From UHGV virus genome UHGV-0133741: a stretch of 64,000 nucleotides of DNA. One strand, written 5' to 3'. How positions within the stretch are numbered: the stretch's first letter is position 1; every line of letters starts with the position of its first letter. The position numbers were made by a program, and so were the translations under genes. Source of the stretch: a virus. Positions 40,323 to 47,927 of this stretch are shown here, piece by piece. Below the pieces are notes generated by a model that was given only the letters and a program-made list of their open reading frames with translations, ran no database searches and was not told where the DNA came from.

Positions 40323-41270
40323 TTATAATATCGTAATTGTTGCATTTATCGTAACTATCCCGCTACCGGTATCTCCGCGTATTTTCATTGTAAGAGGTTC
40401 ATCAACCCCTGCTCCAAATGGAGGGACCACGTAGTCTATTTGTTGCCCAATTGGTATATTGGACATTCCCAGACCTTGTATTTCTACATCATACGCTCCA
40501 GTGGACACTATTTGGAATGTTAGTTTGGCGTTAAAGGTTTCGGTATCTGAACTGTTAACTGCATTTAGTGCAGTAGTTGCTGTGCAGGTGTTTCCAGTAG
40601 TTGCCATACACGACAATTGGCTGTCTCTGAAATTCACTTTTACAGCATGGTTGTTAATAGCAGTATACGTAATTACGAGTTTATTACGAATGTTAGTTTG
40701 GTGATTGGTCGTATCGTCGTCTGCGCTATATGCCCACTGGTCCTCAAGATTTACGATGAACGTCCCCTCTAATGTATCCGTTGTACTGAAAGGGCGTAGT
40801 TTTATATCGACGTTAGGCCGATAGCTACCTGGTTTTCTCACTATGCCAGCACCTTGAACATCGTTGTTCTCGTATTTTGCGTATCCCATATTTAGTGTGA
40901 GAGCGTTATATCCAATTTCTGCTATATATTGTGAATTGCCACTTATCGGTTTTTTACTTCCTGGTATGTTGGAGTAGGTATTTACGTTGTTTGAGTAATT
41001 GGTTAATCCCATGTATATCCTATCAGCTCGAGAGAGCTCGTACTTATAGGTAAACTCGCTTCCTCTGATACAGTCCCAGATCGACATTGTTTTTGTCGTG
41101 GACTCTCCATTAACCCATTGCCCATACTTGTTAGTAGTATCTCCTTGTATAGAAATGGATGTCGGACACATGAGCGATCCAGCGTGGCTGGATAGACTGG
41201 TAAGCAGTATTGCTATAGATATATATTTGGTCATTCTTGGCAGTCTCATTGTTGATTTGTAAATTTTCAT
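40323..41270 (-). CDS. secreted Thr/Ser/Asn-rich protein, possible adhesin
   Basis: Signal peptide MTKYISIAILLTSLSSHA; beta-rich composition with paired Cys; located downstream of the fimbrial/DsbA genes. Confidence 0.45.
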   Translation of the reverse strand: MKIYKSTMRLPRMTKYISIAILLTSLSSHAGSLMCPTSISIQGDTTNKYGQWVNGESTTKTMSIWDCIRGSEFTYKYELSRADRIYMGLTNYSNNVNTYSNIPGSKKPISGNSQYIAEIGYNALTLNMGYAKYENNDVQGAGIVRKPGSYRPNVDIKLRPFSTTDTLEGTFIVNLEDQWAYSADDDTTNHQTNIRNKLVITYTAINNHAVKVNFRDSQLSCMATTGNTCTATTALNAVNSSDTETFNAKLTFQIVSTGAYDVEIQGLGMSNIPIGQQIDYVVPPFGAGVDEPLTMKIRGDTGSGIVTINATITIL

Positions 41271-41660
41271 ACGGGCAAAGCGCTCTTCAACTGCCCACGA
41301 TATCCATCGTGCCGCATGATGTTTCCTCCGCTAGAGAACAATCTCTTCAGCCCCTCTTCGGGCCTGTTCCTCAGGTCGCTGCTTGTTTTGCGCATAGCAC
41401 TATCCTTGTGCTCTCGTTGCATAAAACTACACACCGAGCTAGTCAATCCGCGCTCCATACGACTGACCTATGTTTTATCCGAATGGCATTGTCCTCAAAA
41501 CAGTGACAGCACGCGTAGCGGTTTGCGCCCTGCCCGGCGGTTCGGGAAAGCTCATTCTTCCGTAGCACCGATATATTTCTGCAAGTCATATTCCTAATGT
41601 GATGTTTGCGTTCTAACGCGCCGGAAAAACACTCTGCGTTATCCCAGCCCTTTGTCCCCT

Positions 41661-42302
41661 TTATTCCTGACGTTTCAGCAACACGCTAACCACATCCGCA
41701 AAAGCTTTTCCGTAACCCTGCTCACTGGACGGCCGTATGGCTCCGTTATTCATCAAATATTTTCCCCTGACGAAGAAAGAAGGTGTTCCTGTTACACCAT
41801 AAGTTCTTGCCGCTTCCTGCTGTTTTGCCGTAAGGGCACGTACCGCCATACTGTTTTTTGCTGCATCATAGTCCCTTTCCGAAATACCGGCATCGATGAA
41901 CACTTGGCGAATACTGGCTTCTGTCGTAATGTTCCTGTTTACCTGTACTGCCACAAATAGTGGTAACTCCACTTTGTCTTCCACACCCAATACTTTTGCC
42001 ACCGACCAGGCTTCTGTCAGCTCCTGTCCCATCGGCCCCATTGTGCTGACGTGATACTTCACCACTTTCTCTCCAGCTGGCAGGATTTTGTCCACTGCCT
42101 GACTGACAAAAAAACGACTGCTGAAGGCTGCACAGGGCGGACAGTAAAAGGAGAAAAACTCCACCACCGCCGGAGCATCCTCTACCGGCATCTTCAGCAT
42201 GGTATAGTCCTTTCCTTCCACGGGAACTGCCGCCTGAGTATGGGGCATACAAGTGATGCCCAGCCCACAGAACAGCAGAAATATCAGTTTTCTGAACATC
42301 AT
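41661..42302 (-). CDS. DsbA-like periplasmic disulfide oxidoreductase with CPPC active site (SrgA-like)
   Basis: Signal peptide; thioredoxin-fold motif FYCPPCAAF; CPPC rather than CPHC as in Salmonella SrgA. Confidence 0.75.
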   Translation of the reverse strand: MMFRKLIFLLFCGLGITCMPHTQAAVPVEGKDYTMLKMPVEDAPAVVEFFSFYCPPCAAFSSRFFVSQAVDKILPAGEKVVKYHVSTMGPMGQELTEAWSVAKVLGVEDKVELPLFVAVQVNRNITTEASIRQVFIDAGISERDYDAAKNSMAVRALTAKQQEAARTYGVTGTPSFFVRGKYLMNNGAIRPSSEQGYGKAFADVVSVLLKRQE

Positions 42303-42545
42303 TAATTACCTTTCACTTTATTTATTAAAGAATAATAGAAATTGTTTTTCTGTCCGAAACACCATGCCGGATCAGTAATAATTCTGCAGCAAATGAGTTT
42401 CAAACCAGAGATACCCCCAGAGAAAACAGTTCAGGATGAACAGAAAAATTTCTGCAAAATATTCTTTCAGCCTCCCTCCAGTTCTCTCCCCTTTTGCGTA
42501 AACCTTTTTCCTGCCTACAGGTATTTGTTTCACCTTTGGCCTTCC

Positions 42546-43070
42546 TTACGGATAACCTACTTCAAAACGCAATGTGGCCGATGCCAAGCCGAATGGCCCG
42601 TTCTGAGACACATTCGTCTCCGGAGTCAAGGTGCAGGTACGCATCATGGTGCCGACAACAGCATTTTCATCAGTGCAAAAATAATCGCTCATCGTCGGAC
42701 CAGTAAGTTTTATCAGAGAAGCGCTCTTCTTTTCTCTCAGCGCAAGTGTCGCACCGGTTTCAGTACCACTGACTGTCTGCAAGATAACTTTTTCATCACC
42801 GCTTGCAGTTCCTTTAACAATGTTAGCTGTCAGAGCTGTTTTAATCGGAGTGTCACCTTCACACTTCCAGGTGATCTCCAGCGGAGCATGTATCTTTGAC
42901 CCTGGAGTCAGGGTGCCCAGGTTATATGAAGTAGGCACCGTAATGTCACAGCTTGGCTGGGTGAAGGCGACATTAATTGTCAGCGTCGCTGTGGCAGTGG
43001 TGGCAGCCTGCCCGCTGCCAGTCATAACCGTCATTATCAGTAAAGCCTGGGCTACTTTAATGAATTTCAT
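42546..43070 (-). CDS. fimbrial minor subunit
   Basis: Signal peptide MKFIKVAQALLIMTVMTGSGQA; Thr/Ala-rich beta-strand protein following the chaperone gene. Confidence 0.55.
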   Translation of the reverse strand: MKFIKVAQALLIMTVMTGSGQAATTATATLTINVAFTQPSCDITVPTSYNLGTLTPGSKIHAPLEITWKCEGDTPIKTALTANIVKGTASGDEKVILQTVSGTETGATLALREKKSASLIKLTGPTMSDYFCTDENAVVGTMMRTCTLTPETNVSQNGPFGLASATLRFEVGYP

Positions 43071-46950: not shown

Positions 46951-47238
46951 TCAGCAATAAAACCGAACTAGTTTTGATACACTCCTTTCCACTCTAAGCA
47001 AGCGTCCGACACATACACTCAAATAACCAGCATTAACTCCATATCTTTCACAGACAACCTTACGCGAATCTCCCAGGACAAGATGGTCGTGCATAGCCAA
47101 AATAACCTTTTGACTATGAATTGAAGAAAGCTCAACTAATAAATCAAACTGCTCACCTGAAAGAGTTCTCCCACCCATAATAAAAGGGTTACCGTCCCAC
47201 CGATAGTTAGAAGAATCAATACTATTATAGTTAGACAT
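46951..47238 (-). CDS. PapB/PefB-family fimbrial transcriptional regulator
   Basis: 95 aa; ...LSGEQFDLLVELSSIHSQKVILAMHDHLVLGDSRKVVCERYGVNAGYLS... resembles the PapB family. Confidence 0.7.
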   Translation of the reverse strand: MSNYNSIDSSNYRWDGNPFIMGGRTLSGEQFDLLVELSSIHSQKVILAMHDHLVLGDSRKVVCERYGVNAGYLSVCVGRLLRVERSVSKLVRFYC

Positions 47239-47343
47239 TATATTCCCCTGCTGTGTTCTTACTTTCAAAACCAAGAGAAATACGTCACGTGAAACTTGCT
47301 GCTTATTTTATTCAGCATCAAACTCTGTTCAATAGTTTTTTCA

Positions 47344-47476
47344 CGATCTTTTTAGCTACATCAGCAGGTTATCATAGAATAATATTCTAATATATAAATT
47401 AAACACAGAATAATCACCCAGCACAAGCAATAATCACCAAGATAAAATGATAGTGTAGTAAGTAAAAACGATCTTT
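47344..47476. promoter_or_regulatory. two Pap-type GATC boxes in fimbrial regulatory region
   Basis: ACGATCTTTT at 47343-47352 and ACGATCTTTTAT at 47469-47480 (GATC 126 bp apart) in the AT-rich region upstream of the PapB-like gene. Confidence 0.5.
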
Positions 47477-47801
47477 TATCCTTTTTTTAAAAATCAAAAA
47501 CAACGTTTATATTTTTTATAAATAATCTAAACAAATAAATCTTATCATCACTAATAAAACCTGATTACCACTCCATTACCAACTCAAACATTCATGAACA
47601 TATCAATCAAACCAATATCCCATACCACAATAAATAATAACGAGGGAAACTATGCAAAGCTACAACTAGAATATGAACCATTAGCCCCTCACCCTGTACT
47701 TTAAATAATGAACATGTTTTGTCTTTCCATTACCCGACAAAGGAAAACCATGACGTTATTTCTAATATAAAAATGAGAACGATTATTAAAAATGGAGTGT
47801 C

Positions 47802-47927
47802 ATGAGCGCATTGGTTCTTGAGTATCTTCTTGTAGCAAAAAGGTCACCATCGCAGCGGTGGTTCACATACCGTTATCTCTGGATGCGCACTTATGGTTGC
47901 GCAGACAATCAGAAACTGAAGACATAG
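47802..47927 (+). CDS. PapI-like truncated ORF
   Basis: GGAG RBS; 41 aa MSALVLEYLLVAKRSPSQRWFTYRYLW... resembling N- and C-terminal pieces of PapI/PefI without the middle; divergent from the PapB-like gene. Confidence 0.3.
   Translation: MSALVLEYLLVAKRSPSQRWFTYRYLWMRTYGCADNQKLKT

Follow-up and report, generated by a model that had tools for sequence, protein, structure and literature searches.

The window analysed here, a 64,000-nt stretch of the virus genome UHGV-0133741 on which all positions are given, contains a cluster of fimbrial genes embedded in the backbone of a P1-like phage-plasmid. Seven co-oriented intact open reading frames (ORFs) were found on the minus strand, between positions 40323 and 47274, in the ORF list of the window. 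They encode a PapB-family transcriptional regulator (46951-47238), a major fimbrial subunit with two cysteines (46257-46769), an outer-membrane usher of the PefC/AfrB family (43742-46156), a periplasmic PapD-type chaperone (43057-43749), a FedE-like minor subunit with four cysteines (42546-43070), an SrgA-type DsbA paralogue with a CPPC motif and a GTPS cis-Pro loop (41661-42302), and a secreted protein of 315 aa (40323-41270), here named p315, an ORFan without family match that occupies the adhesin slot.

The usher matched the NCBIfam equivalog model for PefC/AfrB ushers (NF011760) with 1102.6 bits against a cut-off of 752, as well as the Pfam families Usher (8e-145) and PapC_N (2e-23). The chaperone contains PapD_N and PapD_C domains and matched the fimbrial chaperone model PRK15211 (NF011758) with 370.5 bits against a cut-off of 248. 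The regulator matched Pfam PapB (5e-27) and is 52% identical to PefB, and the major subunit scored 153.7 bits with the NCBIfam PefA model, which is under the cut-off of 227. The six exported proteins of the cluster all start with plausible signal peptides, as read from the translations, and the structural subunits contain 2, 4 and 4 cysteines (each 2-4). The usher, the chaperone and the C-termini of the major and FedE-like subunits, both with Gly at -14 and the aromatic residue Tyr at -2, fit the kappa family. Judged by these matches, the cluster is a complete kappa-class (PefC/AfrB-family) chaperone-usher fimbrial operon, predicted to assemble a surface fibre. A preliminary description of this DNA had proposed a minus-strand operon of regulator, major subunit, usher, chaperone and minor subunit related to chaperone-usher systems; all of these ORFs were present, and the family matches of the usher and chaperone lay above curated cut-offs.

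Alignment of the window to P1 showed collinear P1 sequence on both sides of the cluster, as the preliminary description had supposed, with 97-98% identity in the flanks. P1 homology stops at 39973 (P1 10461), 8 bp before the darB stop codon, and restarts at 48174 (P1 17095), within the 5' end of darB. From these exact breakpoints, a non-P1 cargo of 8,200 bp (39974-48173, blastn against P1) replaces 6,633 bp of P1 (10462-17094), nearly all of it darB, with a net gain of 1.6 kb; the region first delimited at 40323-47927 thus lies within a somewhat wider cargo. What is left of darB (48181-48312, minus strand) aligns to the N-terminus of P1 DarB and consists of the first 43 codons, followed by a stop at the junction. 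The right flank continues into the portal gene prt (48388-50097, plus strand), 98% identical to P1 at the nucleotide level and 569 aa long as in P1. The left flank contains ulx (39507-39947, minus strand), intact and with 144 of 146 residues identical to P1 Ulx, and lxc (39262-39510, minus strand), which lies in a segment with 97.5% nucleotide identity to P1 9752-10461 and is annotated in P1, P7 and SJ46. The preliminary description had placed the operon in the lxc/ulx/darB region with all three genes missing; this was right for darB, which is replaced, but lxc and ulx are both present and intact. At the right edge of the cargo lies a fragment of an IS3-family (IS2-like) transposase gene (47932-48125, plus strand), with a weak rve match (20.3 bits, under the cut-off) and 71.7% nucleotide identity to the IS2-family transposase pseudogene located beside the F18 operon in locus L002.

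Changes in ulx were observed among related loci: the E. albertii locus L001 (NZ_CP030784.2) has a 146-bp internal deletion in this gene (~6193), and in L006 and L008 it is called as truncated, with 115 aa. Provided that Ulx acts together with DarB, the decay of ulx in these relatives would fit relaxed selection after the loss of darB.

The contiguity of cargo and backbone was examined with two 300-bp windows, one across each cargo edge, which were matched to related loci. Both junctions were matched end to end in L005-L010 (95-99.7% identity) and in L015 (89-91%), whereas in L001, L014, L016 and L017 one or both were matched in part only. The same cargo was found at the same site in 12 closed E. 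albertii plasmids of 96-102 kb, with about 90-92% identity, and an identical p315 in 24 contigs with the cargo at the same site. An assembly chimera of fimbrial-plasmid and P1 contigs, which would have undone the contiguity claimed earlier, is excluded for practical purposes, because the junctions recur in no fewer than 10 independent assemblies and in the 12 closed plasmids. The cargo was also present in two IMG/VR contigs and in draft assemblies labelled E. coli, and a near-identical copy (99.5% over the whole cargo) occurs in a record named 'MAG: ... Bacteriophage sp.', the origin of which is unchecked. Among complete RefSeq E. coli genomes, none contained at least 80% of the cargo. According to a preprint, the Dar system (DarAB, DdrAB, Hdf, Ulx) is found in every P1/D6 sequence (bioRxiv 10.1101/2025.09.12.675607); the fimbria-carrying loci examined here, including the 12 complete E. 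albertii plasmids, hold the cargo at the darB position.

Protein-by-protein comparison with the annotated F18 locus and with the pef-srgA region of pSLT gave amino acid identities to F18 (fed) of 93.5% for the usher, 87% for the chaperone, 58% for the major subunit (FedA) and 55% for the minor subunit (FedE), and to pef of 58%, 64%, 43% (PefA) and 28% (orf5), respectively. Since the fed identities exceed the pef identities in all four proteins, the nearest named relative by this measure is F18 of porcine E. coli and not Salmonella pef; the usher-chaperone core is about 87-89.5% identical to fed at the nucleotide level. The label "Pef-like" given to the operon at first therefore holds for the usher family (Pef/AfrB, kappa) but not for the closest named system. 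The order of major subunit, usher, chaperone and FedE is the same as in F18, and an IS2-family scar adjoins both loci. However, the major subunit, with only 58% identity, is not of the FedA type, the FedF adhesin is absent with an unrelated ORFan in its place, and the PapB regulator, the DsbA paralogue and a reverse transcriptase (RT) remnant found here have no counterparts in the F18 plasmid locus examined.

With the pSLT locus the cluster shares a PapB-type regulator followed by major subunit, usher, chaperone and an orf5-like minor subunit, a linked CPPC DsbA paralogue, and an upstream CGATCTTTT Dam box, but the identities are only 28-64%, and 46% between the DsbA paralogue and SrgA. The full pef-srg content (pefBACD-orf5-orf6-pefI-srgD-srgA-srgB-rck-srgC) was not found: only counterparts of pefB, pefA, pefC, pefD and orf5 are present, together with the DsbA paralogue. 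With dsbA coming immediately after the FedE-like gene, and with orf6, pefI, srgD, srgB, rck and srgC absent, the gene order is not, as had been thought, that of pef-srgA. By its subunits the cluster is thus neither F18 nor Pef, as it lacks FedF and has a major subunit of another allele class.

In overall architecture the cluster came closest to Fed/AfrB-like operons that were found on IncF plasmids from E. coli, E. marmotae and Citrobacter (e.g. CP056643.1 and NZ_CP053574.1). These have the regulator, the major subunit, the usher (88-95% identity), the chaperone (91-93%), FedE (63-84%) and a DsbA paralogue (84%), the gene of which directly follows FedE, and one of them (CP056643.1, locus L011) contains an intact RT of the UG4 class, the remnant of which survives in the window. 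They differ in having an SrgD-like LuxR regulator after dsbA, in their downstream proteins of ~300 aa, which are distinct from p315 and mutually unrelated, and in their carriers, which are IncF plasmids (one typed as conjugative, one as non-mobilizable) and not phages. In L011 the LuxR-type gene and the UG4 RT gene are separated by two adjacent ORFs (2875-3596, minus strand); one encodes 135 aa with a signal peptide and the other 88 aa with a pilin-like C-terminus, and the pair resembles a frameshifted adhesin-type gene.

The DsbA paralogue, which the preliminary description had reported as a DsbA with a CPPC active site, was recognised as such: it matched Pfam DSBA (1e-20; 74.9 bits against a cut-off of 25.6), and carries CPPC at residue 54. 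Its identity is 46% with SrgA, 44% with E. coli DsbA (EcDsbA) and 84% with the paralogues of the IncF Fed-like loci; SrgA and EcDsbA share 35% identity. With the NCBIfam equivalog model for housekeeping DsbA the window protein scored 220.5 bits, under the cut-off of 279. The active-site stretch DAPAVVEFFSFYCPPC is common to the paralogue and SrgA. The cis-Pro loop reads TGTPSFFV in the window and RGTPSVYV in SrgA, both with Thr before the cis-Pro (GTPS), in contrast to RGVPAMFV in EcDsbA, where the housekeeping Val (GVPA) is found. CPPC and GTPS occurred together in 83 of the 126 sequences of a motif census made up of 120 database homologues and references. In a neighbour-joining tree rooted on EcDsbA alone, SrgA and the window DsbA fell in one clade with about 120 CPPC/CPAC, Thr-cisPro paralogues, a placement that with a single outgroup is indicative but not proof. 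In a phmmer search of the Protein Data Bank (PDB), Salmonella DsbA (3L9S) ranked slightly above SrgA (3L9V). "SrgA-like" seems a fair label for the protein. SrgA is reportedly required for the folding of PefA, a result ascribed to Bouwman et al. in 2003, and by analogy the paralogue could oxidise the fimbrial subunits encoded beside it.

A UG4-class RT pseudogene (41292-41548, minus strand) lies in the 390 bp that separate dsbA from p315; approximately its last 100 codons remain, with stops and a frameshift. It was detected by tblastn with the intact 323-aa RT of L011, covering residues 220-313 at 40-43% identity (E = 1.5e-4), and is also found in most of the P1-borne relatives. The L011 gene (L011 1392-2363) matched PADLOC RT_UG4 over its full length (1e-131); its label as a transposase in the record is wrong, and it is not an insertion sequence (IS) gene. 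A remnant of an SrgD/LuxR gene was considered for the segment between dsbA and p315 and was not found, the segment being the RT remnant. RTs of this class have been described as mainly plasmid-borne, without defence signature, and linked to predicted fimbrial protein clusters (Mestre et al. 2022, PMC9226505). This association and the remnant indicate that the locus is derived from an RT-linked fimbrial locus that has since lost the RT. In L011 the intact RT is followed after 20 bp by a different secreted protein, of 302 aa. That the ORFan p315 follows the remnant where the plasmid with an intact RT has an unrelated gene hints that UG4 RTs are perhaps involved in the turnover of adhesin genes. 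The locus ties these RTs to a specific fimbrial architecture.

p315 had been noted earlier as a secreted Thr/Ser-rich protein, which agrees with its signal peptide (...SLSSHA|GS) and with a mature part that is 19.6% Ser+Thr and 9% Asn; its likely start is at 41234, giving 303 aa. As a member of a pef-srgA gene order it could not be retained, since it is unrelated to SrgB and Pef orf6 and lies downstream of the decayed UG4 RT. No match to p315 was found in Pfam, NCBIfam, PADLOC or PDB sequences. A word-indexed search of 5.8 billion proteins returned 24 clusters of homologues, all from Escherichia, and an exhaustive profile hidden Markov model search of 1.84 billion representatives recovered only its own cluster. 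The gene was at the same P1 site in every genomic context read, including that of a variant with 65% identity and that of a variant recorded on contigs of up to 134 kb. By this distribution, p315 is a lineage-restricted ORFan of the P1 lineage. Homology to FedF, Pef orf6 or SrgB was rejected by BLAST, hhalign and PDB phmmer, and no relationship emerged when its profile was compared with those of FedF, Pef orf6 and the proteins encoded downstream in the IncF loci. A lipoprotein reading was also rejected, because the Met at -1 of Cys35, read from the sequence, is unfit for a lipobox.

In position, size and signal peptide p315 resembles a terminal fimbrial subunit, and its C-terminal strand is like those of FedF and two Citrobacter proteins in having Gly at -14, Ile at -2 and a pattern of alternating hydrophobic residues. 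Its N-terminal half is variable and its C-terminal half conserved, and its elevated dN/dS (ratio of non-synonymous to synonymous substitutions, values below) also favours such a subunit. The AlphaFold2 (AF2) model, with a predicted local distance difference test (pLDDT) score of 57, is all-beta and has two parts, an N-domain at 65-84 and a C-domain below 50; structure searches with this poor query model gave no significant fold match. The role of p315 as a receptor-binding adhesin or terminal subunit is likely but unproven. A different view is that p315 was a partner or passenger of the former UG4 RT module and has another function, in which case the fimbria would lack a dedicated two-domain adhesin, with binding carried out by the major or the FedE-like subunit. 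In support of this view, p315 comes immediately after the RT remnant, the upstream flank of the 302-aa protein behind the intact RT of L011 is homologous to that of p315, and p315 has no homology to known adhesins. However, UG4 RTs are reported specifically with fimbrial protein clusters on plasmids and carry no defence signature (PMC9226505), p315 is like FedF in its size, its terminal position, its signal peptide and the Gly(-14)...Ile(-2) strand at its C-terminus, and a variable N-half with a conserved C-half is what two-domain adhesins show; we consider the RT-partner explanation rather doubtful.

All seven ORFs were intact in every related locus examined. Identity among the P1-borne loci is 97.6-100% for the backbone genes prt and lxc and 93-100% for the usher and chaperone; it spans 42-100% for the major subunit and 65-100% for p315. 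Mosaic combinations occur, as in L017, with a major subunit identical to that of the window and a p315 of 81% identity. The dN/dS ratio was 0.03-0.22 for the usher and chaperone, indicating purifying selection, and 0.33-0.70 for p315, with values up to 0.83 in its N-terminal half; synonymous divergence among loci reached 0.2-1.3. This pattern is usual for antigenically exposed fimbrial parts, and the variable exposed parts in mosaic combinations argue that the genes are in use.

The explanation that we favour, with good though not full confidence, is that a fimbrial cluster nearest to F18/fed was swapped into darB of an Escherichia P1-like phage-plasmid lineage, which is represented in E. albertii and in isolates labelled E. 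coli. Its source would probably have been an IncF-type virulence plasmid, through IS-mediated recombination. Transcription would be under the PapB-family regulator and the AT-rich region upstream of it, with its Dam (GATC) boxes. The subunits would be exported by Sec, their disulfides formed by the SrgA-type CPPC DsbA paralogue, and the PapD-type chaperone would cap them by donor-strand complementation. The usher would then polymerise the major subunit with the FedE-like minor subunit, with p315 probably as the receptor-binding end subunit. Because the prophage that carries the cluster is a plasmid, the fimbria would be acquired by every lysogen, a case of lysogenic conversion, at the cost of DarB anti-restriction.

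The regulatory region (47239-47930, ~690 bp) was delimited by composition, at about 35% GC, and by a GATC census. It contains two CGATCTTTT Dam boxes at 47345 and 47470, 125 bp apart, with flanks matching the Dam sites of pef and Citrobacter, so that a Pap-like Dam/Lrp phase switch is plausible from the sequence, although it may be degenerate or dependent on host factors. A 41-aa ORF (47802-47927) was considered as a PapI-like gene and rejected for lack of a supporting match. A promoter and terminator scan was uninformative, with fewer promoter-like sites than in shuffled controls. Beyond the cargo, within the darB stub, a C1-operator-like sequence ATTGCTCTAATGTATTT (48245-48261, plus strand) was observed, with two mismatches to the consensus; it lies between the cargo and the predicted PdarB promoter, at a place where P1 has three mismatches and no annotated operator.

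Several observations speak against a working fimbria carried by a working phage. In pef and Citrobacter an inverted GATC box lies 102-103 bp from the first, but the distal partner at +103 (47448 region) reads GATA in the window, and neither a papI-type gene nor a remnant of one was found upstream of the PapB-like gene; as a result, the phase switch may have degenerated and left the operon silent, like pef in vitro. Neither in sequence nor in fold was p315 found to resemble FedF or another adhesin, its AF2 model being poor, and the decayed RT gene that separates it from dsbA means that it may not be co-transcribed. The plasmid replicon is outside the window, and the loss of darB with the decay of ulx in some relatives could signal a drift toward a plasmid-only lifestyle.

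The cluster might be a silent hitch-hiker without phenotype, kept by its linkage to the phage-plasmid. Such an interpretation would be in keeping with the missing PapI gene, with the loss of one canonical GATC box and the single box kept in the regulatory region of the E. albertii locus L001, and with a long AT-rich leader that is a likely H-NS target, for which pef offers a published precedent (PMC6844306). It is set against ORFs that have stayed intact across a synonymous divergence of 0.2-1.3 with a machinery dN/dS well below 1, and against the allelic replacement of the major subunit and the fast evolution of p315, which suggest selection at the surface; a silent cluster therefore appears improbable to us.

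The remaining P1 blocks of the window, which starts at P1 63313, just past repA, are collinear with P1 at 94-98% identity; full length is kept by pacA, pacB, c1, cre, prt and the tail-gene block. These data bear on whether the carrier could instead be a defective, plasmid-only derivative of P1, with the fimbrial genes spread vertically or by mobilisation. In its favour, darB is lost, ulx is deleted in part (L001) or truncated (L006, L008), published P1-like elements with virulence cargo, pSvP1 among them, have lost phage modules (PMC6906374), and only 64 kb of the element is visible. Opposed to it are the collinear blocks and full-length phage genes, element sizes of 93.7-102 kb, which suit a P1 headful, and the 99.5% copy in the bacteriophage record of unchecked origin; we regard a plasmid-only carrier as rather unlikely. 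A broader proposal goes beyond the favoured darB swap: a still-infective P1 lineage would have exchanged the virion-packaged DarB for a fimbrial organelle with its own oxidoreductase, and would, on infecting E. albertii and E. coli, be spreading host or tissue tropism between the two species by means of a fast-evolving ORFan receptor-binding subunit. We put this forward tentatively, as a possibility that falls well short of probable.

Among UK isolates of E. albertii, 41% are reported to carry P1-like phage-plasmids, whose described cargo includes antimicrobial resistance genes, cnf3 and defence systems, CapRel for example (bioRxiv 10.1101/2025.09.12.675607). pSvP1 carries virulence genes of enterotoxigenic E. 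coli (PMC6906374), among them the enterotoxin genes stb and eltAB (LT/STb) (bioRxiv 10.1101/2025.09.12.675607). The capture of plasmid modules into a P1 backbone in association with IS elements is common to these cases and the present one (PMC6906374; bioRxiv 10.1101/2025.09.12.675607), but here a whole fimbrial organelle is involved, at darB and not at the published RD regions, in a nearly size-neutral swap that leaves the visible phage genes intact. In the literature searched on E. albertii, P1-like elements and fimbriae, no description of a fimbrial operon on a P1-like element was found, and given the published cargo of resistance genes, cnf3 and LT/STb, the preliminary view of the operon as an unusual payload seems fair. 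Kappa fimbrial operons, SrgA-type DsbA proteins and P1-like cargo are known kinds, and the sequences are public with automatic annotation; the points added here are the precise darB swap, the ORFan in the adhesin slot and the UG4 RT scar.

If the phage is infective and the operon expressed, the element would illustrate the transfer of an adhesin through lysogenic conversion, in which infection could pass an adhesion trait between Escherichia strains, with carriers in E. albertii, a clinically emerging species. The darB site can be seen as a trade-off between anti-restriction and colonisation cargo, and p315 as a candidate receptor-binding protein without homologues.

Other differences from P1 were observed outside the fimbrial cargo. 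At the P1 res-mod site, a 378-aa RelA/SpoT-domain protein (38089-39225, plus strand) matched the PADLOC candidate PDC-S33 (3.9e-86); in phage SJ46 a RelA/SpoT family protein is annotated within the match to this part of the window. In related fimbria-carrying P1 loci a SIR2_2 protein of about 434 aa takes its place, suggesting a variable defence slot at this site. A 249-aa DUF4145 protein (36446-37195, plus strand) is encoded in an insertion of ~800 bp between ref and mat relative to P1. Two non-P1 segments (21358-24612 and 24956-26590) stand in place of P1 pmgT to upfM/hot; one ORF (21884-22762) has a PAPS-reductase domain, and the other ORFs of both segments are without Pfam match. In L005-L010 and L017, an IS605-family OrfB/TnpB gene lies beside prt or pro, in the first ~1.1 kb of each.

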